NCBI GenBank assembly: GCA_052168235.1 | Contig: JBQLZK010000054.1 | Span: 1-52,460, forward strand | Direction: 5' to 3' | DNA: 52,460 nucleotides | Source: Thainema sp. | Lineage (GTDB): Bacteria > Cyanobacteriota > Cyanobacteriia > Phormidesmidales > Phormidesmidaceae | In this document: one piece after another, positions 7,976-49,911 of the stretch | Layout of the letters: every line of letters begins with the position of its first letter | Position numbering within the stretch: the stretch's first letter is position 1 | Notes under the pieces: model-generated | The model's input: only the letters and a program-made list of their open reading frames with translations | Told to the model about the DNA's origin: nothing | Database searches by the model: none | Made by a program: the position numbers and the translations under genes

Positions 7976-8199
7976 GTATTGAACCTCTTGTTGTGTCAAC
8001 AGCGTGTGATTACCTTCATATTAGAAATGTTATGGATTTAACTCATGATTCTGTTGATAGAATTACCACCAATAGACTCTCTTATAGAGGGTACAGATCA
8101 TCTCCTCTAACAGGCTATTTAACTAATTCTTTTGACTACAAATTAGTAGAAGATCCTCACCTTTTGGTTTATTACTTAAACACATTCGTCTCGCGCTGT

Positions 8200-21496: not shown

Positions 21497-22453
21497 ATGC
21501 TAGTTAGTCAAGGTAAAGCCAGATTCTACGAATCCTTTAGCGATCAACATCGATATTGGAAGTGGTTATATCAATTAATTAGCCATTTCTATCATCGTTA
21601 TCATCATTTAGAACTAAAGCAAATTCTAAATCTGCGAATTGCATCTCCTCAGCCTACCAAAACGGTTCGATTCTATGCAGATGACCTACAGTTGGTGGGT
21701 GATGTTTATTTACCTCGTGAGAATCCAACCGCTTCAACTATTGTTTTGCTGCACGGTTCATCAGTTTTTGGTCGAAAGCTAACGCTGATGAGGGCTCTAG
21801 CTCAAGAAATGCGTGCTTTGGGTTATGCCATGTTTGTCTTTGACATGCGGGGCTACGGACAATCACAAGATCCGCAGGACTATACTATTAAAAATTTCGA
21901 CTTTGCTCAGGACGTTGTGTCGGCAGTTGACTATTTGAAAGCTAATTATCCTGAACATAGCGAAAATCTTTATGTGTTTGGTCATTCCTGGGGTGGTGCA
22001 GTTGCGCTGGCAGCACAAGCTCGCGATTCACGTATCCAAAAAACGATTTCGTTTGGGCCACCACGTCGGCTATCAGAGCGATTTTTAAATCCTGAAGCAC
22101 GGGAGAAAAAGAAGCTACTGATGCGATGGCAAGCTGATATGCAACTGAACCATCCGATCAGCTTCGAACTGTGGCAACAGGTACTAGAGCCGCTCAATAT
22201 TGAAAACTACGTTGATGCCTTTTCACAAAGTACCCAAAAGCCCATTTTCTTGGTTGATGCCGAAAATGAACCGGCGGCTGACTTACAGTTTCTGCGCGAT
22301 ATTTATCGGACGTCTTCCAACCAAATCCAGTACTGGACAGCACCACAGACGGATCATTATTTAGGCAGCGGATTTATATTCGGCATTCCCTGCTACGACA
22401 AAGAAATGGTTTCTAACTTTGTCACTCGTATAAATCAGTGGCTGATTTCTTGA
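21497..22453 (+). CDS. Alpha/beta hydrolase
   Basis: LLHG, FDMRGYGQS, GHSWGG nucleophile elbow, TDH. Confidence 0.85.
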   Translation: MLVSQGKARFYESFSDQHRYWKWLYQLISHFYHRYHHLELKQILNLRIASPQPTKTVRFYADDLQLVGDVYLPRENPTASTIVLLHGSSVFGRKLTLMRALAQEMRALGYAMFVFDMRGYGQSQDPQDYTIKNFDFAQDVVSAVDYLKANYPEHSENLYVFGHSWGGAVALAAQARDSRIQKTISFGPPRRLSERFLNPEAREKKKLLMRWQADMQLNHPISFELWQQVLEPLNIENYVDAFSQSTQKPIFLVDAENEPAADLQFLRDIYRTSSNQIQYWTAPQTDHYLGSGFIFGIPCYDKEMVSNFVTRINQWLIS

Positions 22454-25900: not shown

Positions 25901-26359
25901 GATGCGATCGCAACCAATGTGACAAACCTCGTCGGTAGTCGGTATAGCGATACCCTAATTGGCAATGGTGGCAACAATATCCTGCAAGGAAATGGTGGCG
26001 ATGACATCTTGACCGGGGGCGGCGGCAGCGATACGTTTGCTTATACCAATCCGAATCAAGGTATAGATGCAATCACCGACTTTGGCGCAAACGATTTCTT
26101 CCAAATTTTGGCCTCTGCTTTCGGTGGTGGTCTAACGACTGGGATGAGTTTGGCCAGCAACACAGCCTCCAGTACGGGTGCATTGGTCGTTGGTTCAAAC
26201 CCGACTGCGGTGGGGAACAACGCTAATTTCCTGTACAACACCAGCAATGGCCTATTGAGTTTTGATGTCGATGGTGTTGGTGGGCAAAGCGCTGTTGGGC
26301 TTGCTTATCTGAGCAATCGACCTGCTTCTCTATCGGTCAATCAGTTTCAAATCGTGTAG
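22961..26359 (+). CDS. Large secreted protein: 3x (CBM6/35-like + cadherin/Ig-like) + SGNH/GDSL esterase + RTX C-terminus
   Basis: xEAE...R[VI]DY jelly-roll modules; PDAVND...YTP..FSGTDxFTYTIQD repeats; GDSIT, GHPG, GTND, DALHP; Gly-rich nonapeptides; no signal peptide. Confidence 0.85.
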   Translation: MDLIRRIEAESLNLAGYVTASKSFASGGVYIELNSVGSGTATTTFAALGDAPAGTYNITIGAYDESDGASQLTLYVDGQLVGTTILNQSAGGTRAEARNLRQITFQGVNLTPTSQIQLVGTLDAGEQARVDYLEFSLVQATGGGGTTPPANQSPDAVNDTASTTANTAVSIDVLGNDTDPDGNPLSITSVQPTSAQGGSVVVNSNGTLQYTPAANFSGTDAFTYTIQDGRGGQDTATVTVNVAPPVTPPPSGGRPATSLKVEAETMVLANGYEVESQTFASGGKMIRLNNNATEGSATITSFDNGSGVYKVTLVVHDESDGISTLKLVVDGQQVAVVAMDKSAGGTRATEQNRRLIEIPNITINEGAQVQIIGTLNSGEVARIDYVQFDPISTPTNRPPDAVNDTANTDANTAVFINVLGNDTDPDGNPLSITGVQSTSAQGGSVVVNSNGTLQYTPAANFSGTDTFTYTIQDGQGGQDTATITVNVAPPPSGGKPATSLKVEAENMVLANGYEVESQTFASGGKMIRLNNNATEGSATITSFDNGSGVYKVTLVVHDESDGISTLKLVVDGQQVAVVAMDKSAGGTRATEQNRRLIEIPNITINEGAQVQIIGTLNSGEVARIDYVQFDPISTPTNRPPDAVNDTANTDANTAVSINVLGNDTDPDGNPLSITGVQSTSAQGGSVVVNANGTVNYTPAEDFSGTDTFTYTIQDSQGGQDTATVTVTVAPLPTNPGTANYANAVQGIIANLNTRTVLKPVYGNLATPKIMALGDSITAGVHRNSPYPGAYRVQMWERFEEDGLVGNAQTVNFVGSQKNTNAPANLLDVDHEGHPGEKISYISSLVDGGLMSAYQPDAVLLMIGTNDAGGHNPSGMIKSLESLINKITAQSPETYLLVSTITPIPSDRDRGSVASSQTVAEYNRLIRELIPKKIAEGKRIKLVEAGGSLTWDDMLANDALHPTAAGYDKMGNTWYDSLIGKDAIATNVTNLVGSRYSDTLIGNGGNNILQGNGGDDILTGGGGSDTFAYTNPNQGIDAITDFGANDFFQILASAFGGGLTTGMSLASNTASSTGALVVGSNPTAVGNNANFLYNTSNGLLSFDVDGVGGQSAVGLAYLSNRPASLSVNQFQIV
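23702..25147 (+). repeat. Intragenic 723-bp tandem duplication
   Basis: 23702 and 24425 both begin cctcctcccagtgg; the CBM-like part is almost identical at nucleotide level. Confidence 0.92.
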
Positions 26360-28803: not shown

Positions 28804-28915
28804 ACCTTGCTTATGACTCGGACTCACGGCAACAGGCTTACTATTTAGAAAGCCCATAATGGGCAGATTTCTCACAGTGATGCAGAATGCCGTTTGGCCA
28901 TCTGCTGGGATTGAC

Positions 28916-31171
28916 ATGAATTTATTTGATCATCACCGTCAGCAACAGATCGAAGCCGAAGCGCCGCTGGCAGCGCGGATGCGTCCCCGGACGCTGCAAG
29001 AATATGTTGGGCAGGGCCACATTTTGGCACCGGGACGGCTGCTGCGACGGGCAATTGAGGCCGATCAGCTCTCGTCGCTGATTTTCTATGGCCCACCGGG
29101 GACGGGTAAAACCACACTGGCGCGGGTAATTGCCAATCGCACCCAAGCGGACTTTATTGCCATCAATGCGGTTTTGGCTGGAGTGCAAGCCATTCGAGAT
29201 GCGATCGCACGGGCGCAGGAGCGGCGCGGTCAGTTTGGCCAGCGGACGCTGCTGTTTATCGACGAAGTGCATCGGTTCAACAAAGCGCAGCAGGATGCGC
29301 TGTTGCCGTGGGTGGAAAACGGCACGGTGATTCTGATCGGGGCGACGACGGAAAATCCCTATTTTGAGGTGAATAAAGCGCTGGTCAGCCGTTCGCGCGT
29401 GTTTCAGCTCAAGCCGCTGTCGGCAGAAGACTTGCGCCAAATTGTGCAGCAAACACTTCAGGATCAGGAACGCGGCTATGGTCAGCAGTCAGTTGAGCTT
29501 GAATCCACAGCGCTGGCTCACTTGATTAACGTCGCCAATGGGGATGCGCGGGCGTTGCTGAATGCGCTGGAACTCGCAGTCGAAACGACTCCGCCCAATT
29601 CTAGTGGCACTATTCATATCTCCCTTTCGGTGGCCGAAGAATCGATCCAGCAGCGAGCTGTACTCTACGACAAAGAAGGTGATGCCCATTTCGATACGAT
29701 TAGTGCCTTCATCAAGAGCCTACGCGGTTCTGATCCCGACGCGGCGCTGTACTGGCTGGCCCGGATGATCTACAGCGGCGAAAATCCCCATTACTTATTC
29801 CGGCGCATGTTAGTGATGGCTAGTGAAGATATTGGGCTGGCTGACTCGCAAGCGATTGTGGTTGTCCAGTCCTGTGCTGCCACGTTTGATCGGGTGGGAC
29901 TGCCGGAAGGTCACTATGCCCTGGCTCATGCAGCGCTGTATCTGGCCAATGCGCCGAAGTCGAATAGCGTCCTGGGCTTCTTCGATGCGCTGAAGCTGGT
30001 GGAGCAGGAGCAGGCCGACGATGTGCCCAATCATTTAAAGGATGCCACCCGCGATCGCAACACGCTGGGTCACGGTGCAGGCTATCGCTATCCCCATGCC
30101 TACCGCGATCACTGGGTGGCGCAGCAGTATCTACCGGGCAATCTCCAGGGACAGGTGTTTTATCAGCCCTCCAATCAGGGAGCCGAAGACCAAATCCGTC
30201 GCCAAGTCGCCCGCCGTCGCGAGGAACAGCTAGCGGCACTACTCGACGACATCGGCACCTCTCCCGTGGAAAATCTCACTTTCTCGCCCCCGAATAAAAG
30301 CCAGGATCGCTGGCTACAGCGCACGATTGGTCAACTCGGTCAGCGGCTCGGCCAAGTGCGCGATCGCATATTCACCCTGGCACATCTCCAACGTCACCAT
30401 ATCGTTCTCGACCTCAACGCCGGAACGGGATTGCTCACCTGGGAAGCCCTGCGCCAAGTCCCCGAAGGCGGCGTCTACGCGCGTACGATAACTGATGCAG
30501 AAGCGAAAACGCTCAGGGAACTGGCCGAAAACTTACCGTCACTCCAGCGACCGATCGTGTTTAGCTGTCCGGATTTGGATCAGATCACACAGCCTAATTC
30601 ACCGATTGCAGAAGTGCGCTTTGACTGCGTCATTGGGCGCAATGCGCTGACGGCTAATGGCGGTAATCCGGACGATTGGTCGAAACTGCTAAGTGCGATC
30701 GCAGATGTGCTAACCGATAACGGTCAAGTCATCCTGGCCGAAACCATACCGTTGCGATCGCAGCGCCTCTATCGCTGGCTGCAACCAGGCTGGTTCCCGG
30801 CAGATCTGTATCAGCGCTTAGTTGCCGCCGAAGACAGTATTTATGACGCCAAACAGCCCGCGTCGCAACCGAGCCTAAACTGGGACGTGGAGCAGCTCAG
30901 TCAAGTCTTTACAACCACAGGTTTGCAGCCCAGGATCGAGATTGAGCAAATCCAGGCCGATTTACGTATTACACCCGCTCTCATCGACCGCTGGTTCCAC
31001 GTTTCCCCCCAATCCAACTCCCCAGATGCCGCCACCGCATCCTATGCCGATCACCTTTCCCAGCAGCTAACATCGGACGAAATCCAGGAGATTAAAACCA
31101 TTTTTATGCGTCATTTAAGCCAACAGGTTTTATCCTGGGACAGCGCGATCGCAATTGTCCAAGCGTTATGA
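28916..31171 (+). CDS. rarA: Replication-associated recombination AAA+ ATPase (RarA/MgsA) with a C-terminal methyltransferase-like domain
   Basis: [58 protein letters not shown]-terminal VLDLNAGTG. Confidence 0.92.
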
Positions 31172-32995: not shown

Positions 32996-33598
32996 TTAAT
33001 TTTGATCCGCCTCGGTGCGCCATTCTGCCGCAGGAATTCGCCAATAGTTGCCCTGGGCTCTCTGCATCATGTTGTAGCCAATGAACTCCCGCCGCAGCGT
33101 TGCAACATCAGCATGAAACGGCTTCAGCACAGCATTGACTTCCTTTTCTGCATACTGCCTGTCTTCATCAAACTGATTCACTAACCACTTCAGCACCACC
33201 CAACGCTTCTTACGGCTGGCTGGCAGCTCTTGCAGACGACCATCAACAAAATAGCTGCGTAAAATCTTTGCCTCCCAAGCGTCAGTGTCAATATCGGTTG
33301 TCAATTCCACAATCTGCTCAGGCGTAAACAAGGCTTTCGTCATGGTTTCCAAAGTTTTTTGATCCAACTTGTAGAAGTGGGTGTTTTTGTCCTGCCGCAT
33401 CTGCACTAGCTCAAGCTGTTTCAGCTTTGCAAGATGATGGGAGACGGTTGGTTCCTTGAGATTCAGCAAAGCAGCAAGCTCTTCAACGCTATGCTCTCGC
33501 TGCGCGAGGAGACCAATGAGCTTCAAGCGGCTCTCATTCGCTAAAGCCTTGAAGAAGGCAAGTAGGGTTTCAACTTGCGGCTGTGTCACGGCTAACAT
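32996..33598 (-). CDS. ArsR/SmtB-family regulator with C-terminal DUF2087
   Basis: FKALANESRLKLI, TVSHHLAKL; GRLQELPASRKKR, YAEKEVN, DVATLRRE. Confidence 0.9.
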   Translation of the reverse strand: MLAVTQPQVETLLAFFKALANESRLKLIGLLAQREHSVEELAALLNLKEPTVSHHLAKLKQLELVQMRQDKNTHFYKLDQKTLETMTKALFTPEQIVELTTDIDTDAWEAKILRSYFVDGRLQELPASRKKRWVVLKWLVNQFDEDRQYAEKEVNAVLKPFHADVATLRREFIGYNMMQRAQGNYWRIPAAEWRTEADQN

Positions 33599-34193: not shown

Positions 34194-36080
34194 ATGTTGT
34201 TCGTTTTTTGGACTGTCTATATGATCCCTCCTGAATCTTCGTCTCCTGCTGTGCCGGAGCCGCCCGCTACACCATCCAGCTCATCTGCCGAACGCAACTT
34301 TAGAGCGTTTCTGATTCAGTTCTTTCGGCGGGTCAAGAATTTTTTCGATGCCCAAGCGCTGCCCTACGTCGCCAATAAAACCTGTGAAGTGTACTTAGGT
34401 GACAGCCATAAATCTCATCAGGTGAAATGTCGGCGAATTTTGCGATCGCGCCTTGAACTCAATCCCACGCAGCTCCAGCATTTTTTCCAGACCTCCGTGG
34501 GAGACATGCTAGTGGGCTGGTTTGAGCACTTCTTCCATTTACCGGATCATCACGACAATCATCCTGACAAACGCCATGCGCTGAAGGAAATGCTGATTCA
34601 AATGGCGGCTGATCCAGAAGGTTTGTCACTGCTCAGCTTTTTGCGGCGTTTCCCAGACACGATTCAGTTCAACACCGACCAGCTCTTGTTCACCGCGAAA
34701 CGGGTGGAGCTGATGCTGCAAGAAACCGATCGCACCATTGCAACGGTTCGTGAACTAGCGGCTCAAGAGCAGCAGGCCGCCTCTGCCGTCAACTTTGCTG
34801 AGCTGCCCGATTTGCAGCAGCGGGGAGATTTTACCGTCAAGCGATTTCGGTTTATGCTCGATGGGGCACAGCGGCATCAGGTGGATGATAGCGAAGAGTT
34901 GAGATCGCTCTCCGTTACCTGCTACGAACCGCAGCCCTGGCCGGAGAAAATGTACGTAATTGTGCAGTCCCACGGTCTAGCCTCTAGTCCCGATGATATG
35001 GAGCTGTATGGCCGACACATGGCCTCTCACGGTTACGTTGTAGTCGCACCGCAGCACCCTGGCAGTGATATTAGCTATGTGCGGCAGATGCTTCAGGGTG
35101 AAACGGCTGAACTGTTCAAGTGGACAGAGTTTATTAATCGACCGCTGGATATCCAGGATACGCTGGATGAACTAGAGCACCGCAATGCAAAAATTTATGA
35201 CAACCGCCTACAGCTTGATGCCGTGGGGATTATGGGCTACTCGTTTGGTGCGTATACCGCATTTGCCCTAGCGGGAGCCGAGATTCATTTTGAAACGCTG
35301 GAAAGTGCCTGTGGCGCAACGATTTGCGACCCAAATATTTCGCTATTGCTCCAGTGCCAAGCCCTTGGTTTGCCGCGCCAGCGATACCACTTGCTCGACC
35401 CACGCATTCGGGCGATTCTTTCGCTTGATTCGGTGGGCAGTGAAGTTTTTGGCCCAATGGGGATGTCAAACGTGCAAATTCCGGCCATGCTGGTAGCAGG
35501 AAGCCATGATCCGGCTGCTCCTCTCGCGTTTGAGCAAATTCGTATGTTCCACTGGTTGCAAAACTCAGATGCTTATTTAGCATTAATGCAGGGCAAATCT
35601 CATCTGCGTGATGCCCAACGTCTAGTTCGCCTGTTGGATTTACAGATCAACGTTTCACCTAGCCCCAGTCAAAATCGTGGTGCCGCCGATGTTCCACTGC
35701 CCTTTGAGTCCTATGTGAAGGCGCTCAGCATTGCGTTCTTTGGCGTACATATTAAACAAGAAAGTGCGATCGCACCCTACCTCAGCTCCAGCTACGCCAA
35801 CTACCTCAGCCAGTCCCCCTACGACTTCTGGTTGCTCAGCCAAGCCTCCAAACCCCAGCTCGATCACCAGCTAGAGCAGTTGGATCTCAACCTCGTCTCT
35901 GAACTGATTGACTCTAATACAAATTCCATTACACCCCCCACAACCTCAACGGCATCCTCTCCCCCCTCCCCCTCACCATCAACTGATTCACGTGCTTCAC
36001 TATTAACCACTCCCCCCTCCTCCACCCATCCACCCTACTATCCATCCACCCTCGACTCATCCACGGAGAACCCAGCATGA
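34194..36080 (+). CDS. Alpha/beta hydrolase with DUF1400-like N-terminus
   Basis: SHGLAS, HPGSD, EFINRPLDI, GYSFG, NISLLLQC; low-complexity S/T/P tail. Alternative start at 34221. Confidence 0.85.
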   Translation: MLFVFWTVYMIPPESSSPAVPEPPATPSSSSAERNFRAFLIQFFRRVKNFFDAQALPYVANKTCEVYLGDSHKSHQVKCRRILRSRLELNPTQLQHFFQTSVGDMLVGWFEHFFHLPDHHDNHPDKRHALKEMLIQMAADPEGLSLLSFLRRFPDTIQFNTDQLLFTAKRVELMLQETDRTIATVRELAAQEQQAASAVNFAELPDLQQRGDFTVKRFRFMLDGAQRHQVDDSEELRSLSVTCYEPQPWPEKMYVIVQSHGLASSPDDMELYGRHMASHGYVVVAPQHPGSDISYVRQMLQGETAELFKWTEFINRPLDIQDTLDELEHRNAKIYDNRLQLDAVGIMGYSFGAYTAFALAGAEIHFETLESACGATICDPNISLLLQCQALGLPRQRYHLLDPRIRAILSLDSVGSEVFGPMGMSNVQIPAMLVAGSHDPAAPLAFEQIRMFHWLQNSDAYLALMQGKSHLRDAQRLVRLLDLQINVSPSPSQNRGAADVPLPFESYVKALSIAFFGVHIKQESAIAPYLSSSYANYLSQSPYDFWLLSQASKPQLDHQLEQLDLNLVSELIDSNTNSITPPTTSTASSPPSPSPSTDSRASLLTTPPSSTHPPYYPSTLDSSTENPA

Positions 36081-36979
36081 GACGCACCGAAGGACGATTC
36101 AAAACCGCTGACGGACTCGAACTGTATTACCAACAGTGGCATCCGGATGGCGAAGTAAGGGCTGGACTCCTGATTGTGCATGGATTAGGGGCTCGCTGCG
36201 GTTGGTTTGAGAATGTGATTCAGGCACTGTTGCCGCAGGGGATTATGGTCTATGAGTATGACCTGCGGGGACATGGTCGTTCATCAGGACAGCGAGGCCA
36301 TATTCAGTCGTGGCAGCAGCATCGCCAGGATTTGCACCAGTGCTGGCTATTGATGCGTAAGCAACTGCCTAATCGACCTTGCTTTATCATGGGGCACAGC
36401 CTGGGTGGGGTAATTGTGCTGGACTATGTGATGCACCGTAAAACCAACTGTGCAGATGGGGTGCTGCCGCCAGCAGGAATGATTTTGATGGCTCCAGCGA
36501 TTGGGCCAGTGTGTGTGCGATCGCTAAAGCTGCTGATTGGACGGTTCTTTTCCAGGATTTATCCCCGGTTTACGCTCAATACGGGTATTTGCCGAGAATC
36601 TGCCTCCCGCGATCCGGCGATTTTGGAAGCCTATGCGGCGGATAATTTGCGCCACACGAAGGGAACGGCGCGACTGGCCACGGAGTTTATTCGGACGACG
36701 GAGTGGATTCGGGCGCATCTGTCGGAGCTTCAACTGCCGACGTTGGTGCTACAGGGCAGCGCAGATGCGGTGACGCTGGCACCAGGCAGCCGCTATTTGT
36801 TTGACCAGTTGCAGATGGATGATAAGCAGTATCGCCTCTATGAGGGGGGATACCACGATTTACACAACGATCTCTGTGCGGCAGAGGTAGCAGGGGATAT
36901 TGCCACTTGGCTAAGTCAGCATGTGGAGGGCAAGCGCATGGTGTGTAAGCTACCGGAGCATTCACAGGTTGAGGCTTGA
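36077..36979 (+). CDS. Lysophospholipase / monoacylglycerol-lipase-like hydrolase
   Basis: VHGLG, DLRGHGRSSGQRGH, GHSLGG, GGYHDL; ATGA overlap with the upstream gene. Confidence 0.9.
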   Translation: MRRTEGRFKTADGLELYYQQWHPDGEVRAGLLIVHGLGARCGWFENVIQALLPQGIMVYEYDLRGHGRSSGQRGHIQSWQQHRQDLHQCWLLMRKQLPNRPCFIMGHSLGGVIVLDYVMHRKTNCADGVLPPAGMILMAPAIGPVCVRSLKLLIGRFFSRIYPRFTLNTGICRESASRDPAILEAYAADNLRHTKGTARLATEFIRTTEWIRAHLSELQLPTLVLQGSADAVTLAPGSRYLFDQLQMDDKQYRLYEGGYHDLHNDLCAAEVAGDIATWLSQHVEGKRMVCKLPEHSQVEA

Positions 36980-41317: not shown

Positions 41318-43672
41318 TTAGGATTTAACGGTCTGGGTGAGATTGGGCTGTGATACTTTTACCTTGCCATTCACGACATATCCGCCTCGTTGATACTCCT
41401 CGAAACTAAAGGCGTCTACTTGGATGGCCTCGTTCCGCAGTTGCTCAGCTTCGCGTACCAGTTCCGCCTCTGCTTCGCTGATCAACTCTTTATCAAGAGC
41501 CAGATCCAGCAGTTGATCGGGGCGACCTTTGGGTAACTGGCCAGTGCGGCTGGCGGTTTTGATTTTCTGGAGGATCTGATCCGCTTCGTGGGCGGCGGCA
41601 AATGCCTGTTCGATGCGTCCTAGAGCTTGAGTTGGATCAGTGGGAATATGAATGCCTGCGGTAATGCGATCGCGGCTGTCCGATTGCCGTTGAAGTAGCT
41701 GAGCAACCTGATGTCCTAGCTCATCACTGGGAGGTTTGCCAATTGGGTTCAGGCGCATCCAGGGTAGGGCGATGCCGCGCAGGAGGAATGTTAAACCTGG
41801 GACATGCAGATTGTCGAGAATACCTTCAATAGCATCTTGAATTTGAGCAAAAGCATACTGAAGACTCCAGTGAACCAGCGGTCGGTCAGCCTGGGGTGAG
41901 CCTTCGGCCTCAAAACGGCGTAGGGTGGCGGTTGCCAAATACATCCAAGACAGCACATCGGCAAAGCGACCCGTGAGTTTTTCTTCGCGCTTCAGATTGC
42001 CGCCGTAGCTAAATAGCGTCAGGTCAGTCAGGAAGGCAAATAGCGCCGATGACCAGGCCAGCTTGCGGTAGTAAATCGCCGTTTCACCGGAGACTGGAGA
42101 TTTGGCGAAGCGAGCATGGGTTAGGGTCAAGAACTTGGCGCGGAAGCCGTTGCTGAAGAATGAGCCGAGATGTGCCCAGAAGGCTTTATCGAACGCTGCG
42201 ATGTCGTTACTGCTGAGCGCTTGAATTTCTTGATACACATAGGGATGGCAGCGGATGGCACCCTGACCAAAGATCATCAGCGTGCGGGTGAGGATATTCG
42301 CCCCTTCCACCGTGATCGCAATTGGCATCGCCGTGTAGATGTTAGCCAGCAGGTTGCGTGGCCCCCGACAGATGCCGGAACCGCCCATCACGTCCATACC
42401 GTCGATGACCACCTGCCGCGCGAGTTCCGTTGAGTTATACTTTGCGATCGCAGATACGACAGCAGGTTGTTCGCCTCCATCCACTGCGCCACAGGTATAG
42501 AGACGGGTGGCATCAATCATATAGGTGAGGCCAGCGATGCGCGCTAGGGGTTCTTCGACGCCGCCAAAGCGACCGATGGAGAGGCCGAACTGCTGGCGAA
42601 TGACGCTGTGGGCACCAGTGACTCTGGCGACCAGCTTGGCAACGCCTGTACCGCTGGCTGGGAAGCTAATCCCGCGTCCGGCAGCGAGGGACTGCATCAG
42701 CATCTTCCAGCCTTCGCCTGCTTGTTCCACGCCGCCAATAATGTGGTCAATTGGCAGCACCACATCATGACCTTCCGTGGGTGAATTGTAGAACGGTACA
42801 CCCATCGGATCGTGGCGCTGATTGATGATTACGCCTGGGGTGTGGGTGGGTACCAAGGCGCAGGTGATGCCGATATCTGTTCCCTTGCCCAGTAGCTTTT
42901 CGGGGTCGCGCAGGCGGAAGGCGAGACCGAGCAGGGTTGCGATCGCACCCAGGGTAATGTAGCGCTTCTTCCAGTTCAGCCGCATATAGAGCTGGCCGTC
43001 ATCGCCTTTGAAGACTTCACCGTGGGAGGTGAGGCTAGCGGCATCCGAACCCGCATTTGGTTCAGTCAGCGCAAAGCAGGGAATATCTTCGCCACTGGCC
43101 AGTCTGGGTAAGTAATGGCGCTTCTGTTCCTCAGTGCCGTAGCGCAGCAGCAGCTTAGCGGGGCCAAGGGAGTTGGTCACACCGACAGTGGCCACATGGG
43201 TAAACGAGCGGGAGGCCAGCTTCACCATCACAGCGCTGTAGGCTAAGTTGGAAAAGCCTAGCCCACCATACTCCTGGGGAATCATCATGCCAAAGAAGCG
43301 CTCTTGTCTCAGGTAGTCCCAGACCTCCGGCGGCAGGTCTTTGCGCTGGTAAATTTCCCAATCGGTTGCCATCTGGCAGACTTTTTCTACTTGATGGTCG
43401 AGGAATGCCTGTACGTCAGGTGGGACGGTCGGGTAAGACTGCGATCGCAATCGGTCGAAGTCAGGTCTACCTGTAAAAAATTCCTGCTCGACCCAAGCAT
43501 TTCCGGCTTCAATGGCTGCCCGCTCGGTGTCTGAAATCTTGGGCAGCAGGCGCATAGCGGTGATAGCTTTGACCAGCCAGCGGGTGATCAGGTTACGGCG
43601 CAGCCAGGGGATGAGCAGGATGCTGGTGAGCGCGCTGATGGTGATGAGGAGGGTAATGAGTAAGGCGAACAT
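41318..43672 (-). CDS. fadE: Long FadE-type acyl-CoA dehydrogenase
   Basis: N-terminal TM, LPKISDTERAAIEAG, NSLGPAKLL, CFALTEPNAGSDA, ITVEGANILTR, DUF1974-like tail. Confidence 0.93.
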   Translation of the reverse strand: MFALLITLLITISALTSILLIPWLRRNLITRWLVKAITAMRLLPKISDTERAAIEAGNAWVEQEFFTGRPDFDRLRSQSYPTVPPDVQAFLDHQVEKVCQMATDWEIYQRKDLPPEVWDYLRQERFFGMMIPQEYGGLGFSNLAYSAVMVKLASRSFTHVATVGVTNSLGPAKLLLRYGTEEQKRHYLPRLASGEDIPCFALTEPNAGSDAASLTSHGEVFKGDDGQLYMRLNWKKRYITLGAIATLLGLAFRLRDPEKLLGKGTDIGITCALVPTHTPGVIINQRHDPMGVPFYNSPTEGHDVVLPIDHIIGGVEQAGEGWKMLMQSLAAGRGISFPASGTGVAKLVARVTGAHSVIRQQFGLSIGRFGGVEEPLARIAGLTYMIDATRLYTCGAVDGGEQPAVVSAIAKYNSTELARQVVIDGMDVMGGSGICRGPRNLLANIYTAMPIAITVEGANILTRTLMIFGQGAIRCHPYVYQEIQALSSNDIAAFDKAFWAHLGSFFSNGFRAKFLTLTHARFAKSPVSGETAIYYRKLAWSSALFAFLTDLTLFSYGGNLKREEKLTGRFADVLSWMYLATATLRRFEAEGSPQADRPLVHWSLQYAFAQIQDAIEGILDNLHVPGLTFLLRGIALPWMRLNPIGKPPSDELGHQVAQLLQRQSDSRDRITAGIHIPTDPTQALGRIEQAFAAAHEADQILQKIKTASRTGQLPKGRPDQLLDLALDKELISEAEAELVREAEQLRNEAIQVDAFSFEEYQRGGYVVNGKVKVSQPNLTQTVKS

Positions 43673-43700
43673 GGTTGTACCTACAGGTTATCTGCGGGGT

Positions 43701-43822
43701 TGCCCTCACCCCCAACCCCTCTCCCACGGGGAGAGGGGAGCCGAGCTAGGGCTACTGGATAGGTTCGGAGAGGTTGCTAATTCTTGTTCCCTCTCCTGTG
43801 GGAGAGGGCTAGGGTGAGGGCA
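43701..43822. repeat. CCCTCACCCC...GGGTGAGGG cyanobacterial inverted-repeat element
   Basis: tgccctcaccc ... gggtgagggca termini, each followed or preceded by a ctctcc-N-ggagag sub-hairpin. Confidence 0.85.
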
Positions 43823-43823
43823 G

Positions 43824-45011
<1,188 letters not shown>

Positions 45012-45025
45012 GGTTCGGTTCCTCA

Positions 45026-47389
45026 TCAGTTCCTCAGCGGTTTCTTGGTTTTGAGCATGTGTAGAATGCGCTCTTTGGTCTTGGGTTCGTCAATCAGCGG
45101 CAGGAAGTTGTCGCGCTCTAGGCCCAGCAGATAGGCATCTTCAACCTTAGCGGGCGCGGTCAAGTCCCCACCTGTCAAGACATAGGCCAATCGCTCGGCC
45201 AGAGATTGATCAAACTCGCTGATATAGTGGCCTTCACGCATCACATAGGCCATGTGCTTCAGGATGGCCTGTGCAGGCTTGCCCAGTACCGGAATCGGTT
45301 CTACGACGGGGGCTTGATAGCCCAGGTTGTGGAGGCAGAGCACTTCTTGTTTTGCAGCGTAAAGTCTGCGATCGCTGTTCATGATCACCTTGGTATCGGC
45401 AGGCAAGAAACCTAGCTCCATTGCTTCGTAGGCGCTTTTGGCGACTTTGGCCATGCCGACGGTGGTGAACACATGCTTCAGGTACGGCAGAATATCGCTG
45501 GCTTCATCGGTCAACGCCTGATTCGCTGCCCAACGCGCCAGCCGCATTAGACCGCCGCCTGCCGGGATGAGTCCGACACCGAGTTCCACCAGACCAATGT
45601 AGGTTTCCGGATCGGCCACCACATGGGGACAGGCCATCGCGATTTCGCAGCCGCCACCCAGCGCCCGACCGTGAACCGCCGCCACGATCGGTTTGTGGAA
45701 GTAATACATCCGCTGCACGAGCTGCTGCATCTTATCGAGCAGCTTGGCGATGCCACTGTGGTTGCGGTTGAAGGGATTGAGGTTTTCCATCTGGGCCATC
45801 TTGCCGACTTCGGCCAGGTTGATGCCCACACAGAAGTTGTTGCCTTCATTACCCAGCACCATGCCTTTGGCATCATGTTCCTCTAGCCAATTCATGACCT
45901 CCTCTAAACCTTCAATCACCTTGCTGCTAAGGGTGTTCGCTTTGGAACGAAACTCATACAGAACGACACCATCACCGAGATCGAGCAATGCGGCTTCAGC
46001 GTTTTGCCAGAGTACGTTTTCGGGCTTCTGCTTAATCACATCCAGATGAATTTCATCGGTGGGATGCGGCAAGTCTAAATAGCGATCGCGGCTGGGCACA
46101 TACACCCGATCGTCTGCGTAGAAACCATCGGCCTTTGCCTGCTCCAGCGTCTTCACCCAGTCGGGGATAGTGTAGCCGTGCTTGATTAAATCCACCAGCA
46201 CCGTTTCAAAACCAATGGCGTCCCAGACCTCAAACGGGCCAAGCTCCCAGCCAAAGCCCAAGCGGATGGCTCGGTCAACGGCGGCGGGACTATCGGCGAT
46301 TTCTGGAATCCGGTTAGCGCTGTAGGCCAGCATGGCCAGAATCATCTCACGAAAGAAGTTGCCGCCCCGATTGCGATCGCGATATAGCTTCCGTAGCCGT
46401 TCTTTCAGATCACTAACCTTCTTGATGCTGTCGATATCGCCCAGCTTCAGCGGCTTTGCGGATTCGTACTCAAACGTTTTAGGATTTACGGACTTAATTT
46501 CGCCGTCCACTTTCTTGTAGAAGCCCTGGCGTGTTTTGGCTCCTAGCGTGCCCGTTTCCACCAGCTTGCGGAGCAGGTCGGGCACTTTGAAGGTTTCCCG
46601 CTGCTCATCGTCGGGAATGGCCGGATACAGGTTGTCGGCGACATACATCAGCGTGTCAAGACCAACCAGATCCGCCGTGCGGAACGTGCCGGATTTGGGG
46701 CGACCCACCAGCGCTCCCGTCATCTCATCAATTTCTTCAATCGTGTAGCCCTGGTCGGTAAAGGCTTTGATGCCCAGCATGGAGACGAAGACGCCGATCC
46801 GGTTGGCGATGAAGTTAGGCGTGTCTTTGGCGCACACAATGCCCTTACCCAGGTGCAGCCGCCCAAACCACTCCATGCGACCGAGAACGCTGGGACTGGT
46901 ATCAACCGTGGGAATTAGCTCCAGCAGCTTCAGGTAGCGGGGCGGATTGAAGAAGTGCGTTCCCAGGAAGCGCTGGCGGAAGGATTTAGATCGTCCTTCT
47001 GCGATCGCATTTACCGATAGTCCGCTGGTATTGGTTGAAATAACGGTCTCTTTGCCAATGGTGCGCTCAATCCGCTCCATCAACTGCTGCTTCACGGAAA
47101 GATTCTCGACCACAGCTTCAATCACCCAGTCCACATTGGCTAGACGGTCGAAGTGTTCATCGTAGTTACCGAGAATGACACGCTGCGCTGCTTTCGCGGT
47201 ATAAAAAATCGGTGGAGAGAGTTTCGTCGCTTTCTTAAAGGCGGTTTCAACTAGATCGTTTTTGTCGCCTGTGAGAGACGCCAGATCGAGCAGATGAACG
47301 GTCAGTCCCGCGTTTGCGAGATGAGCTGCAATCTGTGCGCCCATTACGCCAGCGCCTAAAACAGCAGCGGTGCGAAATGGTTTATACAT
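45026..47389 (-). CDS. 3-hydroxyacyl-CoA dehydrogenase / enoyl-CoA hydratase fusion (FadN-type order)
   Basis: [36 protein letters not shown]-terminal crotonase ALGGGCE and [11 protein letters not shown]. Confidence 0.93.
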
Positions 47390-47434
47390 AGCGGTTTCCT
47401 CTGAAGTGCAGTGAGTGCTGAATAGATGGTGGAA

Positions 47435-47525
47435 CCCTCACCCCCGGCCCCTCTTCTCCTGCGGGAGAGGGGAGTCGAACCATTCTTTTCTTGTTTTCTT
47501 TTCTAGGAGAGGGCTAGGGTGAAGG
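47435..47525. repeat. Second, degenerate CCCTCACCCC-family element
   Basis: ccctcacccccggcccct...gggagagggg ... ggagagggctagggtgaagg. Confidence 0.8.
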
Positions 47526-47612
47526 ATTAGTATTGGTCTTGAAGTTAACCTCGTGGATGGATAAAAGGTGCGATCGCAGTTTGGAGTTGGTTCAAGATTG
47601 CGAAATGGGTAT

Positions 47613-47644
47613 TGTTGGGTTTCGCTCTGCTCAACTCAACCTAC
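47613..47644 (-). repeat. GTAG-type REP-like sequence
   Basis: Minus strand reads gtag-gttgagtt-gagcagagcga-aacccaac-a. Confidence 0.6.
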
Positions 47645-47673
47645 AGGTTTGGTCGAATAGACAAACTAATTCC

Positions 47674-47714
47674 GGCTCCCCTCTCCCTGAGGGAGAGGGG
47701 TTGGGGTGAGGGCA
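47674..47714 (-). repeat. Third, single-arm CCCTCACCCC-family element
   Basis: Minus strand tgccctcaccccaacccctctccctcagggagaggggagccg matches the left arm at 43701. Confidence 0.85.
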
Positions 47715-47718
47715 AACG

Positions 47719-49911
47719 CTAATGATGCAGAAGCGATTTAGCGTAGGTTGGGCAGGCAACAGCAGGCGTCGCAAAAGGTGTAGCTGATACATAGTCATCA
47801 TCGGCATCAGCCGCATCGGTCAGTAGCGGATTGGGAGTATAGAGCGACTGAATTACAGCGGCAAACTGTTCTGTCACCCAAGGTCGATTGACCGTGCCGT
47901 CTGTCTTTAACCCGCCGTTTTCAACGGATAGCTCCGCCTCGACAAGCGTGAAGCGGCGCACAGTTGACCAGTAGGGCAGGTGGCAATTGGCCTGATCAAT
48001 CAGTGCTTGATAGATTGCCAGCAAACGCGGATGGTTGAGCCAATTAACCTGCGTGCAGTCAATGCCCCATTCATCTGCTCCAGCCCTGAGCGCGTCAAGA
48101 TTAGGGAAGATCAACATACCGCAGAATTTTTGATTAGCTCCCACGGTGACGGCATGGTGAATTAATGGCGACTGGACGAGTTCCTGTTCTAGCGGCAGTG
48201 GTGAGACGTATTTACCCGTTGAGAGTTTGAATAAGGGCTTCTTTACGCCCGTAATTGTCAAGAATCCATCCTGATTAAGCTCACCCAGATCGCCCGTGTG
48301 GAACCAGCCCTCGTCAGTCAGTACCGACTGGGTACCGACCTCATCCTGGTAGTAGCCCTGCATGACAAACGGCGAGCGAATCAGAACTTCATCATCATCT
48401 GCGATCGCAGTTTCGACTCCGGCAATCGGTGCGCCAACGGTGCCTGCTCGGTTATGCGTAGCGCGGTTGTAGAATAGGACGCCGCTAGTTTCGGTTAAGC
48501 CGTAGCCCTGTAAAACGGGAATACCAGCAGCCGTGAACTGGTTCACCAGATCAGCTTGGATGGCTGCGCCGCCGCAAATTAGCGATCGCAGTTTTCCACC
48601 GAACGCTTCCCGCCATTTGGCGTAGACGAGGCGGTCGGCAAGCTGGAGCTGGAGTTTATACAGCCCCCGTGGAGCTTGGCTGACATCGAACCGCTGCGCT
48701 AAGCTCAAAGCCCAGTTGAAAATGGCGCGGTCAGAGCGCTTCAGCTTTTGGCCTCGGTCAATCAGCCGCTCGTGGATTTTCTCGATCAGGCGCGGCACTG
48801 TAATCATCACCGTAGGCGAGACGGTACACAGGTGCTTCACCAAATGGTTGGGATCAGACAGATAAACGCTGTGACCATAGGTTACGTGACCGTAGAAGAA
48901 GACCCGCGCAAAAATATGGGTCAGCGGCAGGAACAGCAGCGTGGTTTCTGCATCACCTCGCCCTAAATCTGGGAAGCTGGAAAACGCCGCTAATACATTA
49001 GCCGAAATATTTTCGTGAGTTAGCATCACCCCCTTTGGACGCTTGGTTTCACTGGCGATATAGATAATGCTTGCTAGGTCAGACGGTGCGATCGCAGATT
49101 TTAACTCCGCAATTTGCGCCGCTGACCCGCGAGCCTGCCCCCGCTGCTGAACTTCAGCCAGCGACATCAACTGCACACACTGCGGCAGCGACCACAACCA
49201 GCAGTCGGTGCCAGATTGGGACTCAATCTCCTCACACCCTTGGCCTGGAATCAGCGGATGGGGAATCCGGAGGCAGCTTTCCGGCGGCGGCAAGGACACC
49301 GCCTTAGCCGAGTCATCAGCCAGGGTGCTTACCCCCTGAACTGAAGTGAAATCGGGTGATTGGGCGGCTGAACCAGCCTGCTCAACCAGTTCAACAACGG
49401 GAGAGACATCCTGGAGCAGCCCCCGCTTCACCTGCCGCCAGTTCTCCCCCGTTTCCGCCACAATCACCCACTGCACCGTTGCCGCCTGCCCCAGATAGGG
49501 CAAGAGCTGATGCAGCAAGTCTAAATTGGAAATGACCAGCGCCTTCACGGCTGCATGTTGCAGCACGTAGATAATGTTTTCAATCGTCTGCGTCAGGTCA
49601 ATGGGCACGTCCACTAGCCCCGCTAGCAAACAGCCCATATCCACCGTGCAGAAGGAGACATCGCTGTGCATCACGAGCGCCACTCGGTCACCCTTCTCTA
49701 GTCCCGAATCCAGCAATCCCAAAGCCACCGTTTCAGTCGCCTGCCGAAAATCTTTGGTCGAAAGCACTTGCCAGCGGCGTTTTTGCCACTGATTCAGTGC
49801 CTGCGAATTAGGATTGCGATCGCAAGCTTCATCCAGTAGCGATGGCAGGGTTTGGCCCACAATGAGCTGACCTGGATCGGGTAATGTTTGATGAGAAGAT
49901 GCCCTAATCAT
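47719..49911 (-). CDS. Long-chain acyl-CoA synthetase-like AMP-binding protein with degenerate catalytic motifs
   Basis: PKGVMLTH, FLPLTHIF, VPRLIEK, QGYGLTET, WFHTGDLG, FKLSTGKYV. Confidence 0.88.
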   Translation of the reverse strand: MIRASSHQTLPDPGQLIVGQTLPSLLDEACDRNPNSQALNQWQKRRWQVLSTKDFRQATETVALGLLDSGLEKGDRVALVMHSDVSFCTVDMGCLLAGLVDVPIDLTQTIENIIYVLQHAAVKALVISNLDLLHQLLPYLGQAATVQWVIVAETGENWRQVKRGLLQDVSPVVELVEQAGSAAQSPDFTSVQGVSTLADDSAKAVSLPPPESCLRIPHPLIPGQGCEEIESQSGTDCWLWSLPQCVQLMSLAEVQQRGQARGSAAQIAELKSAIAPSDLASIIYIASETKRPKGVMLTHENISANVLAAFSSFPDLGRGDAETTLLFLPLTHIFARVFFYGHVTYGHSVYLSDPNHLVKHLCTVSPTVMITVPRLIEKIHERLIDRGQKLKRSDRAIFNWALSLAQRFDVSQAPRGLYKLQLQLADRLVYAKWREAFGGKLRSLICGGAAIQADLVNQFTAAGIPVLQGYGLTETSGVLFYNRATHNRAGTVGAPIAGVETAIADDDEVLIRSPFVMQGYYQDEVGTQSVLTDEGWFHTGDLGELNQDGFLTITGVKKPLFKLSTGKYVSPLPLEQELVQSPLIHHAVTVGANQKFCGMLIFPNLDALRAGADEWGIDCTQVNWLNHPRLLAIYQALIDQANCHLPYWSTVRRFTLVEAELSVENGGLKTDGTVNRPWVTEQFAAVIQSLYTPNPLLTDAADADDDYVSATPFATPAVACPTYAKSLLHH

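Follow-up and report, generated by a model that had tools for sequence, protein, structure and literature searches.

Beta-oxidation genes at one locus

To our knowledge, cyanobacteria are described in textbooks and reviews as lacking beta-oxidation genes. The locus studied here raises the question of whether a cyanobacterium, Thainema sp., carries a beta-oxidation pathway of its own and, if so, how fatty acids enter it. The window, the whole 52,460-nucleotide stretch of DNA that was analyzed, contains four co-oriented open reading frames on the minus strand between positions 41318 and 49911, namely an ANL gene, a FadN-type fusion, a thiolase gene and a FadE gene. These four genes had been proposed in an earlier, sequence-only reading, and open reading frame coordinates together with Pfam and NCBIfam domain calls confirmed them; catalytic residues were read from alignments to solved structures.

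The last gene (41318..43672, minus strand) encodes a 784-residue long acyl-CoA dehydrogenase of the E. coli FadE type, with Acyl-CoA_dh_N/M/1 and ACDH_C (PF09317) domains. It scored 1040 bits against NF007000 (cut-off 600) and 866 bits, under the cut-off of 1300, against the FadE_coli model. Over 94% of its length the protein shows 48% identity to E. coli FadE, with which it shares the PF09317 C-terminal domain and a hydrophobic N terminus; in the window's FadE the latter is a predicted membrane anchor (residues 1-23, mean hydropathy 2.4). Its VEGAN motif aligns with FEGTNE of ACAD9 and supplies the catalytic glutamate. The 400-residue 3-ketoacyl-CoA thiolase (43824..45026, minus strand; Thiolase_N and Thiolase_C) has the Cys/His/Cys motifs NRLCSSG, GHPLG and MCVGGG, and the start of its gene shares a single base with the FadN stop. 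The 787-residue bifunctional enzyme (45026..47389, minus strand) has N-terminal 3HCDH_N and 3HCDH domains followed by a C-terminal ECH domain, which is the FadN order. HFFNP and the following glutamate are present in the HADH part, as are both glutamates of the hydratase part, in GGGCEIA and VELGVG. Judged from these alignments, no catalytic residue required for the beta-oxidation cycle on acyl-CoA is missing from FadE, FadN or the thiolase, and the active-site motifs that had been called intact are so.

The combination of enzymes is a true mosaic, as had been suggested. The E. coli fadE gene lies away from fadBA, and its product acts together with the FadB (ECH-HADH)/FadA complex; in the window, the FadE gene is the last of an operon that includes a FadN-type (HADH-ECH) fusion. 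The domain order of that fusion equals that of Firmicute FadN and the Staphylococcus aureus FadB type; the protein aligned end to end with the model NF052272 (residues 6-787 to positions 4-752 of 752) at a score under its cut-off (647 vs. 999 bits). Firmicute FadN-type operons have short or Bacillus-type dehydrogenases, in contrast to the long E. coli-type FadE of the window. According to the available parts of two reports, S. aureus was also long held to be unable to degrade fatty acids (PMC12369327, PMC13170264).

No match to an electron transfer flavoprotein (ETF) family was obtained among the 36 open reading frames scanned in the window, bearing out the earlier statement that it is without ETF genes, and no ETF, regulator or transporter gene is conserved beside the operon in related loci. 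The missing ETF genes carry little weight, since E. coli FadE likewise has no ETF known to serve it, according to the portion of the source available (PMC9329746). Promoter and terminator scans did no better than shuffled sequence (8 vs. 7.3 expected and 12 vs. 9.7 expected, respectively).

Native origin and distribution

The window has 63 copies of the cyanobacterial repeat HIP1 (GCGATCGC), where 1.2 would be expected; none of 100 shuffles reached this number. Fifteen of these sites lie within 41318-49911 (1.75 per kb vs. 1.09 per kb elsewhere in the window), including the intragenic sites reported earlier at 41666, 43441 and 47001. The repeats said to lie between the genes are G+C-rich palindromes, found in both intergenic spacers; CCCCTCTCCC has five exact copies in the window, all within these two spacers. 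In the 151-nt thiolase-FadE spacer (43673..43823, minus strand) the palindromes are nested, and the transcript strand is predicted to form a single long hairpin there (-73.5 kcal/mol for 43680-43823, z = -5.1, none of 200 shuffles as stable). Two members of this palindrome family occur in the 329-nt ANL-FadN spacer (47390..47718, minus strand), together with one HIP1 site; the folds of the two pieces of this spacer were not beyond those of shuffles (z = -0.75 and -1.63).

Of 25 cyanobacterial loci, 15 have the four genes in this order, all on one strand; contig ends truncate the remaining 10, none of which contradicts this arrangement. In another assembly (locus L001, 92% identical), the series GDH-ANL-FadN-thiolase-FadE is retained. 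Among the best 120 FadN matches, all 32 with a legible organism were cyanobacteria (one name was cut off and 87 had no organism), and these spanned Nostocales, Pleurocapsales and Leptolyngbya-like taxa. In the FadN tree, 33 cyanobacterial rows formed one clade with support of 100, within which the Pleurocapsales and the Leptolyngbya-like subclades each had support of 100 and the Nostocales were weaker at 92. A synteny survey and a gene tree had been proposed as checks on the sequence-only reading, and both were favorable to long residence of the operon. The term lineage-restricted was too narrow, as orthologues occur in Leptolyngbya-like taxa, Nodosilinea, Limnothrix, Nostocales, Pleurocapsales, Thermosynechococcaceae and Acaryochloris. 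Compared with L001, dN/dS was 0.045-0.091 across all four genes (0.045 for the thiolase, 0.056 for FadN and 0.091 for the ANL gene). By these sequence comparisons, the FadE, FadN and thiolase genes are under strong purifying selection and their order is kept across many cyanobacterial orders.

A contaminant, a chimeric join or a recent, unused foreign island would be a very improbable source of the locus. In favor of such a source, the closest non-cyanobacterial FadN (39-43% identity over the full length) and thiolase (56-61%) retrieved are from Bacteroidota, where Flavobacterium operons (L026-L080) have the same ACS-FadN-thiolase-ACAD gene order; FadE is of a proteobacterial type; and in Acaryochloris the operon is on plasmids, one of them conjugative, with the two plasmid copies of A. 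marina S15 having frameshifts in the FadN, thiolase or ANL gene. The Flavobacterium dehydrogenase (about 596 residues) differs in having only 25% identity to the window's FadE and in lacking the long E. coli-type architecture. A foreign origin is contradicted by an HIP1 density no lower in the operon than elsewhere in the window, a G+C content (0.53-0.58) in line with that of the window's other coding stretches, the recurrence of the GDH-gene junction in L001, a deep cyanobacterial FadN clade that follows taxonomy, and dN/dS of 0.05-0.09. Because the operon DNA has 15 HIP1 sites and is syntenic in an independent assembly, we regard it as native cyanobacterial DNA, and the genes as real, intact and long resident on a cyanobacterial chromosome, as first proposed.

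An ANL protein with lost adenylation motifs

The first gene (47719..49911, minus strand) encodes a 730-residue acyl-CoA-synthetase-like protein of the ANL superfamily with an AMP-binding domain (PF00501, E 9e-60) followed by AMP-binding_C_3 (PF23562). Its A3, A8 and A10 adenylation motifs are degenerate. Residues 169-237 form a disordered insert, and the C terminus carries a tail ending in a conserved CPxYAxSL motif. ACSL/FadD-type synthetases (PF00501 and PF23562) have the two-domain ANL fold and motifs A5 and A7 in common with the protein; in contrast to them, its clade is without the A3 P-loop, the A8 Asp-Arg pair and the A10 lysine, an A4 glutamate is replaced, and the insert and tail are extra. 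The Flavobacterium synthetase (about 593 residues) retains YTSGTTGxPKG, TDRKK and TPTLKLKR, unlike the ANL protein of the window.

Whether the first gene could nonetheless encode an ordinary ATP-dependent long-chain acyl-CoA synthetase, making the operon a textbook complete pathway, is a serious question, and we consider this somewhat less than an even chance. The AMP-binding domain match is strong, A5 (GYGLTE) and A7 (HTGD) are retained in 115-120 of 120 clade members, and the AlphaFold model is confident (pLDDT 83.5) with ANL enzymes as its top fold matches. Lysine or arginine residues gained in the altered P-loop might make up for those lost, a lipase fusion described below suggests free fatty acids as the input, and a published counterpart, also discussed below, is labelled fadD and is co-induced with its operon. 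Against this, the A8 arginine was found in none of the 120 clade members, the A8 aspartate is glycine in all 120, the A10 lysine position is T, E, Q or S, and an A4 glutamate is alanine in 119. The P-loop glycines are retained in just 29 and 27 of the 120, and three orthologues have a 34-residue insert within the loop. Of 132 representatives with a residue at each of four positions, 109 were fully canonical at all four, and the loss maps to a single branch. As read from the alignments, the P-loop, the A8 arginine and the A10 lysine are lost throughout the clade, yet purifying selection persists. All four cycle reactions are covered, as had been claimed; without three adenylation motifs, the activation step is not covered in a plain way.

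Esterases linked to the operon

Two hydrolase genes on the plus strand recur beside the operon. The first (34194..36080) encodes a 628-residue DUF1400 alpha/beta-hydrolase (Pfam) with a cutinase/PETase-like esterase fold. In the window the gene is 5 kb from the operon and convergent with it; in 10 of 25 related loci it is directly upstream. GYS350FG, D439 and H470 are identical in all 10 sequences compared. The predicted model (pLDDT 69.9) matched PETase and cutinases in Foldseek (TMt 0.65-0.76); no sequence match was found in the PDB and none in NCBIfam. The second gene (36077..36979) encodes a 300-residue hydrolase of the monoacylglycerol-lipase (MGL)/lysophospholipase family (PF12146), which matched human and M. 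tuberculosis monoglyceride lipase structures (E about 1e-32). This gene lies between the DUF1400 and ANL genes in 7 of 25 related loci, and in another organism an orthologous domain (46% identity, 290 residues, E 2e-84) is fused to a divergent ANL protein (P0243). By gene neighborhood and fusion, then, two esterases are linked to the operon, one of them through a fusion to an ANL protein.

Relation to published work and proposed role

The operon is not unreported. Ho and Bryant (2019) already named fadD, fadN, fadA and fadE (PMC6424891), and Figueiredo (2021) wrote of fadE and fadN as missing from "most" cyanobacteria rather than all. In the available text of the former, UYEDRAFT_05553-05556 of Chlorogloeopsis fritschii PCC 9212 are labelled fadE, fadA, fadN and fadD and increased 10-22-fold in the wild type and 22-97-fold in rfp mutants in far-red light, and the adjacent lysophospholipase gene, UYEDRAFT_05557, increased 3-8-fold in the wild type. 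The annotated order (lysophospholipase, fadD, fadN, fadA, fadE) is the same, and orthology is judged from this order, the annotation and a single FadN match from that species (P0092, 64% identical to the window's FadN). The authors call these beta-oxidation genes and showed their co-induction; their evidence consists of transcript data, and the paper offers no sequence analysis or biochemistry and mentions neither the motif loss nor the mosaic make-up. A validated glyoxylate shunt is cited for the same strain in the part of a second paper available (PMC5160925).

In the proposed scheme, the MGL-like and cutinase-like esterases would hydrolyze membrane or storage lipid to give fatty acids, which the ANL-family product, despite loss of the canonical ATP-adenylation residues, may pass on as CoA thioesters. 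FadE, FadN and the thiolase would then run the beta-oxidation cycle on acyl-CoA, and FadE would probably need no dedicated ETF to deliver its electrons to the membrane quinone pool. The module may be switched on when light energy is short, as published for the C. fritschii counterpart.

A point against this role is that labelled fatty acids given to three cyanobacteria, which may or may not carry the operon, were retained and not degraded (PMC8252387). An alternative that we regard as unlikely is that the main substrates are not bulk fatty acids, or that the enzymes serve secondary metabolism by chain shortening. Candidate substrates of this kind include storage-polymer hydroxy-acids, isoprenoid or hydrocarbon-derived acids and natural-product precursors. 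A divergent ANL protein could have switched substrate, weak chlorophyllase, PAF-AH and PETase-like matches were obtained for the DUF1400 hydrolase, and cyanobacteria abound in natural products derived from fatty acids (PMC8252387). However, the operon has no conserved biosynthetic (PKS/NRPS) neighbors, FadE most resembles the E. coli-type fatty-acid enzyme (48% identity), the linked hydrolase is of the monoacylglycerol lipase family, and, in the text available, the C. fritschii genes rise alongside proteases under energy limitation (PMC6424891).

The sequence-only reading was thus supported in part: its genes, long residence and mosaic held up, and its stress-survival role fits the C. fritschii transcript data as far as that source goes; its lineage restriction was too narrow, and the activation step is not covered in a plain way. 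What is new here is the clade-wide loss of ANL motifs under purifying selection and the linkage of two esterases to the operon. The operon is probably a native, long-resident lipid-catabolic module of cyanobacteria, most likely used under energy limitation.

Beta-Oxidation Genes of the Operon

Four open reading frames lie head to tail on the reverse strand at 41318-49911 and encode, in the order of transcription, an acyl-CoA-synthetase-like ANL protein (47719-49911; 730 aa, with AMP-binding and AMP-binding_C_3 domains in Pfam and NCBIfam), the fusion protein FadN (45026-47389; 787 aa), a thiolase (43824-45026; 400 aa) and FadE (41318-43672; 784 aa), an acyl-CoA dehydrogenase with the bacterial long C-terminal domain PF09317. 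The four co-oriented genes proposed from the sequence alone were confirmed at these coordinates by open reading frames, Pfam and NCBIfam. FadN and the thiolase gene overlap by a single base, and the other two spacers measure 329 and 151 nt.

FadN carries 3-hydroxyacyl-CoA dehydrogenase domains at its N terminus (3HCDH_N, residues 8-189; 3HCDH, 193-292) and an enoyl-CoA hydratase domain at its C terminus (ECH, 481-622) in a single chain, the arrangement of a FadN-type fusion. Its dehydrogenase His/Glu pair (THFFNP...LLELI) aligned opposite MHYFSP...LLEII of the human enzyme, and GGGCEIA and VELGVG, aligned to the trifunctional-enzyme hydratase, contain the glutamates that we take to be the two catalytic hydratase residues. 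The thiolase has its Cys-His-Cys set in NRLCSSG, GHPLG and MCVGGG (aligned to chain 1ulq_A). FadE, whose Pfam domains are PF02771, PF02770 and PF00441 in addition to PF09317 (ACDH_C; E 1.7e-102), places the catalytic Glu of VEGAN opposite FEGTNE of ACAD9. The dehydrogenase HFFNP motif and glutamate, the FadE glutamate and the thiolase residues, described as intact in the sequence-only reading, were thus verified by alignment to solved structures.

The absence of electron transfer flavoprotein (ETF) genes, also noted beforehand, was reproduced, with no ETF-family match among the 36 window ORFs scanned. The ETF partner of E. coli FadE is itself described as not identified, and its C-terminal domain is speculated to pass electrons on, in the accessible text of PMC9329746; the missing ETF genes near the operon therefore say little.

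Comparison with Flavobacterium operons revealed the mosaic make-up of the gene set. The Flavobacterium loci have the same gene order, with products of about 593 aa (synthetase), 796 aa (FadN), 393 aa (thiolase) and about 596 aa (dehydrogenase). Their FadN shares 39-43% identity with that of the window and their thiolase about 60%, whereas the Flavobacterium dehydrogenase is just 25% identical to the window FadE. The latter is closer to the E. coli type, with 48% of residues identical to E. coli FadE across 94% of its length, a score of 1040 bits against NF007000 (cut-off 600) and a hydrophobic segment at the N terminus; the ACDH_C domain and full-length similarity place it with the E. coli-type long FadE. 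The pairing of a FadN-type fusion with such a FadE, proposed earlier, therefore stands. Atlas look-alikes, which are phylum hints only, pointed to Pseudomonadota for FadE and to an Actinomycetota type for the ANL protein.

Genomic Context, Distribution and Selection

The operon belongs to cyanobacterial DNA. HIP1 occurs at 63 sites in the window against 1.2 expected, and 15 of these lie within the operon, including those at 41666, 43441 and 47001 that had been cited as lying inside the genes. HIP1 density is 1.75 per kb in the operon vs. 1.09 per kb in the rest of the window. The window also holds a gene for the Rubisco accumulation factor Raf1 (10630-11748), a phylum marker that together with the over-represented HIP1 identifies native chromosome. 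The G+C content of the operon (0.53-0.58) is like that of other coding stretches of the window, and L001, a locus of a different assembly with 92% identity, has the same junction with a divergent glutamate dehydrogenase gene. Because of the HIP1 richness, Raf1, the matching G+C content and the shared junction, contamination or a chimeric join is very unlikely.

Several other genes of the window were noted. Paralogous, divergently oriented genes for PRC-barrel and DUF2382 proteins (7025-7999, reverse; 9458-10495, forward) flank a 224-aa ORF without a family match. The Glyco_transf_4 (N-terminal) and Glycos_transf_1 (C-terminal) halves of a GT4-type glycosyltransferase occupy separate forward ORFs (13059-13655 and 13747-14406) 92 bp apart, which may represent a split or broken gene. 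A 770-aa ORF (28859-31171, forward) has the unusual combination of an MgsA/WRNIP-type AAA+ ATPase (residues 41-452) with a C-terminal methyltransferase domain (516-622).

Orthologous operons are widespread in the phylum. A locus scan with FadN covered one genome per species and relied on exact peptide patterns, and so gives a lower bound that is biased as to the outgroups appearing. It found 25 loci in cyanobacteria (57-92% identity); the next matches, at 39-43%, came from Bacteroidota and a few others. By tblastn of the window proteins, 15 of the 25 loci have the four genes arranged and oriented identically; the remaining 10 are truncated by contig ends, and none conflicts with this arrangement. 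Among the best 120 FadN matches in a large protein collection (62-92% identical), 33 were organism-named, of which 32 were legibly cyanobacteria, one had its name cut off and none was from another group. Among the named sources are Calothrix, Nostoc, Chlorogloeopsis, Scytonematopsis, Myxosarcina, Pleurocapsa, Xenococcaceae, Cyanothece, Limnothrix and many Leptolyngbya-like genera.

In a FadN tree built from 38 rows by a quick search, with SH-aLRT as the only support measure, all 33 rows of cyanobacteria grouped in a single clade (100), within which Pleurocapsales (100), Nostocales (92) and Leptolyngbya-like taxa (100) formed subclades. This pattern suggests an old, mostly vertical descent with many losses. 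Values of dN/dS against L001 were 0.091 for the ANL gene, 0.056 for FadN, 0.045 for the thiolase and 0.069 for FadE. At the level of sequence, our analysis shows the beta-oxidation cycle enzymes to be intact, conserved and under selection. The deep clade, kept synteny and low dN/dS values support the earlier description of the pathway as long-resident; the term lineage-restricted proved too narrow, orthologues being carried by Pleurocapsales, Nostocales and Leptolyngbya-like taxa alike. That the operon is an artefact or an unused island is, with this evidence of native DNA and selection, hardly credible.

Three Acaryochloris plasmids carry FadE homologues at 69% identity, and Acaryochloris plasmids hold the whole operon with frameshifts in FadN, the thiolase or the ANL gene. 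The two that do so in Acaryochloris marina S15 are L081 (NZ_CP064927.1) and L082 (NZ_CP064926.1), one of which is typed conjugative (MOBF, MPF_T). The frameshifts seen by tblastn affect FadN and the thiolase on L081, and FadN and the ANL gene on L082; they reflect either decay or sequencing error.

Divergent Active Site of the ANL Protein

The label acyl-CoA synthetase-like, given to the first gene from the sequence alone, holds for the AMP-binding fold (PF00501, E 9e-60) and for motifs A5 and A7, but not for A3, A8 and A10. GYGLTE (A5) and HTGD (A7) are each kept in 115-120 of the 120 clade members. The phosphate-binding loop, the A8 arginine and the A10 lysine serve adenylation in the ANL superfamily. 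Alignment with the Flavobacterium operon synthetases and one solved ligase (chain 8wev_A) showed that the A3 loop, (S/T)(S/T)G(S/T)(S/T)GxPKG, is altered to YIASETKRPKG in the window protein vs. YTSGTTGxPKG in the Flavobacterium synthetases. Its glycines are retained in 29 and 27 of the 120 clade members, and three orthologues have a 34-residue insert inside the loop. At A8, where an Asp or Gly precedes an invariant Arg, the window protein reads TGVKK vs. TDRKK; the Asp is replaced by Gly in all 120 members, none has the Arg, and HMMER placed G-V opposite D-R of 8wev_A. At A10 it reads KTDGTVNR vs. TPTLKLKR, the first Lys of the latter presumably being the catalytic one; this column holds T, E, Q or S in the clade, and the next Arg is kept in 101 of 120. 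An A4 Glu is changed to Ala in 119 of 120.

Such losses are rare in the wider family. Of 150 cluster representatives (50% identity), 132 had residues at all four test positions, of which 109 were canonical at all four and 10 lacked both the Arg and the Lys. In a quick LG+G4 tree of 54 full-length rows with the motif columns included, the 16 rows without a residue match at both positions, a count that takes in gapped rows, formed one clade (100), consistent with a single change. The named members of the clade are all cyanobacteria (Leptolyngbya boryana, L. ohadii, Lyngbya confervoides and a Synechococcus MAG); the two organism-named sequences among ten of the closest canonical representatives are from Acidobacteriota and Bacteroidota. 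The orthologue of L. boryana falls in the P0248 cluster. P0247, a synthetase-family relative from Acidobacteriota, has a TetR regulator domain at its N terminus.

The structure model (pLDDT 83.5) has a confident ANL-enzyme fold with a disordered insert (residues 169-237) and a disordered tail, and its best structural matches are ANL enzymes. The lowest rmsd values (5-7 Å) included a 4-coumarate ligase with AMP and CoA, and most adenylate-state entries lay at 11-13 Å; the pose of the model was given no weight as a functional clue, AlphaFold domain poses being arbitrary. The confident fold and the dN/dS of 0.091 indicate, on sequence and model, that the gene is not decaying and that its product has been maintained with an altered active site.

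If the operon is a native lipid-catabolic module, there remains a serious chance, somewhat short of even, that its first gene is an ordinary synthetase with odd motifs, given the retained fold, A5 and A7. A different reading of the clade-wide motif loss is that the protein is an ATP-independent acyl-transfer enzyme, which kept the thioester half-reaction only and evolved once from an ACSL-type ligase at the base of the cyanobacterial clade; we regard this as distinctly improbable. Conceivably, such an enzyme would transfer acyl groups to CoA either from acyl-ACP, the product of cyanobacterial Aas, through a bound acyl-AMP, or from the acyl-enzyme of a partner lipase. Acyl transfer, if true, would bridge an ACP-based lipid world to CoA-based beta-oxidation with no ATP spent.

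Esterases Linked to the Operon

Two hydrolases recur beside the operon in related genomes. Directly upstream of the ANL gene and on the same strand, a DUF1400 alpha/beta-hydrolase is found in 10 of the 25 loci and a monoacylglycerol-lipase-family hydrolase in 7; neither is upstream in at least six loci with at least 7 kb of upstream sequence (L001, L008, L009, L010, L015 and L018). In the window the pair (DUF1400, 34194-36080; lipase family, 36077-36979) is convergent with the operon at a distance of 4.3 kb. When ORFs of at least 90 aa were clustered across the window and the 25 loci, the only shared neighbors were the four operon genes and these two hydrolases, and no conserved ETF, regulator or transporter gene was found beside the operon.

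The 36077-36979 product is placed in the monoacylglycerol lipase/lysophospholipase family by its PF12146 (Hydrolase_4) match (E 3e-64), its similarity to the solved human MGLL (E 4.5e-32) and M. tuberculosis (E 4e-31) enzymes and its nucleophile elbow GHSLGG. The DUF1400 hydrolase had no PDB sequence match and no NCBIfam match and was placed by fold search alone; its Ser/Asp/His set is invariant, and its model (pLDDT 69.9) resembles cutinase/PETase-type esterases (TMt 0.65-0.76). P0243, a 997-aa metagenome protein, fuses a monoacylglycerol-lipase-like domain, orthologous to the window hydrolase (46% identity, E 2e-84), to a divergent ANL protein. This fusion occurs in one of the 150 representatives, and no fused form longer than 1279 aa was found, which is weak evidence. 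P0272 (962 aa), a relative with canonical synthetase motifs, is fused to a patatin phospholipase domain.

A gene for an ArsR-type HTH and DUF2087 protein (32996-33598, reverse) is oriented divergently to the hydrolase pair; its product is a candidate for local regulation, and related loci do not conserve it beside the hydrolases. The window contains three further alpha/beta-hydrolases (21497-22453 and the pair described here) besides a 1132-aa protein (22961-26359, forward) with bacterial Ig and cadherin-like repeats, a GDSL lipase/esterase domain and RTX calcium-binding repeats, which looks like a secreted or surface-bound lipase.

Operon Spacers and Expression

Repeats had been reported between the operon genes, and G+C-rich palindromes were indeed present in both spacers. 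The unit consists of CCCCTCTCCC, a 3-4 nt loop and GGGAGAGGGG, flanked by CCCTCACCCC and its complement. CCCCTCTCCC has five exact copies in the window, all within the two spacers, and the palindrome family is confined to 43673-43823 and 47390-47718 within the 52-kb window. The 151-nt thiolase-FadE spacer folds as one long hairpin (-73.5 kcal/mol, z = -5.1) and is the only spacer more stable than shuffles as RNA. Possible identities of the palindrome are a small mobile repeat and an element for mRNA processing or stability. Promoter and terminator scans of the sequence gave nothing better than shuffles.

A counterpart has been seen in Chlorogloeopsis fritschii PCC 9212, in which the excerpted text of Ho and Bryant (2019; PMC6424891) lists adjacent genes 05553 (fadE), 05554 (fadA), 05555 (fadN), 05556 (fadD) and 05557 (lysophospholipase). 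Far-red/white transcript ratios in that order were 22.4, 19.5, 20.6, 10.1 and 7.8 in supplement file 3 and 10.4, 11.4, 10.8, 8.6 and 3.2 in supplement file 4, and rfp mutants gave ratios up to 97; the support published there, as excerpted, is transcript induction only. As an analogue of the operon studied here, the counterpart shows the cycle genes to be co-transcribed and induced. The same trend in strain PCC 6912 was set aside in 2024 with reference to the supposed absence of the pathway, according to the available portion of PMC10830646. The glyoxylate shunt has been validated in PCC 9212 (as cited in PMC5160925).

Proposed Role and Significance

In the mechanism that we consider the most probable, esterases would free fatty acids from lipid when light energy is short, and the ANL protein would deliver them as CoA esters. 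A membrane-anchored FadE would feed the quinone pool, and FadN and the thiolase would complete each turn, with acetyl-CoA passing to central metabolism. The least secure step of this mechanism is the activation of the fatty acids. The enzymes could instead serve a non-fatty-acid or chain-shortening role, which, set beside the intact cycle enzymes and the linked lipase-family hydrolases, we consider unlikely.

Beta-oxidation is widely held to be absent from cyanobacteria. In 2020 its absence was called proven (PMC7379126), and the available text of a 2023 review states that such gene sets were "never reported" (PMC10114076). As excerpted, Figueiredo et al. (2021; PMC8252387) found fadB/fadJ missing in all of 129 KEGG genomes and fadE, fadN and fadA in "most", reported labelled fatty acids retained in three strains, and made natural-product discovery with labelled fatty acids depend on the absence of beta-oxidation. 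Our literature search returned transcript reports and no sequence-level analysis of a cyanobacterial beta-oxidation operon. The kinds of enzymes were already known and the operon had been glimpsed in print; new are its wide occurrence as one clade within the phylum, the explicit description of its mosaic make-up, its linkage to esterases, including a fusion, and the loss of adenylation motifs throughout the clade.

Reviews and labelling strategies take fatty acid degradation in cyanobacteria as impossible. That many non-model cyanobacteria possess a conserved operon which is under selection and inducible would make the absence rule a property of the model strains rather than of the phylum, and bears on the choice of biofuel strains, on how lipid labelling is interpreted and on how survival in the dark or in far-red light is modelled. 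It also names tractable strains for direct testing, among them C. fritschii PCC 9212, Nodosilinea nodulosa PCC 7104 (locus L015) and, provided that it has the complete operon, Leptolyngbya boryana. The ANL protein without its motifs sharpens the question of where acyl-CoA comes from in organisms in which fatty acids are otherwise activated onto ACP.
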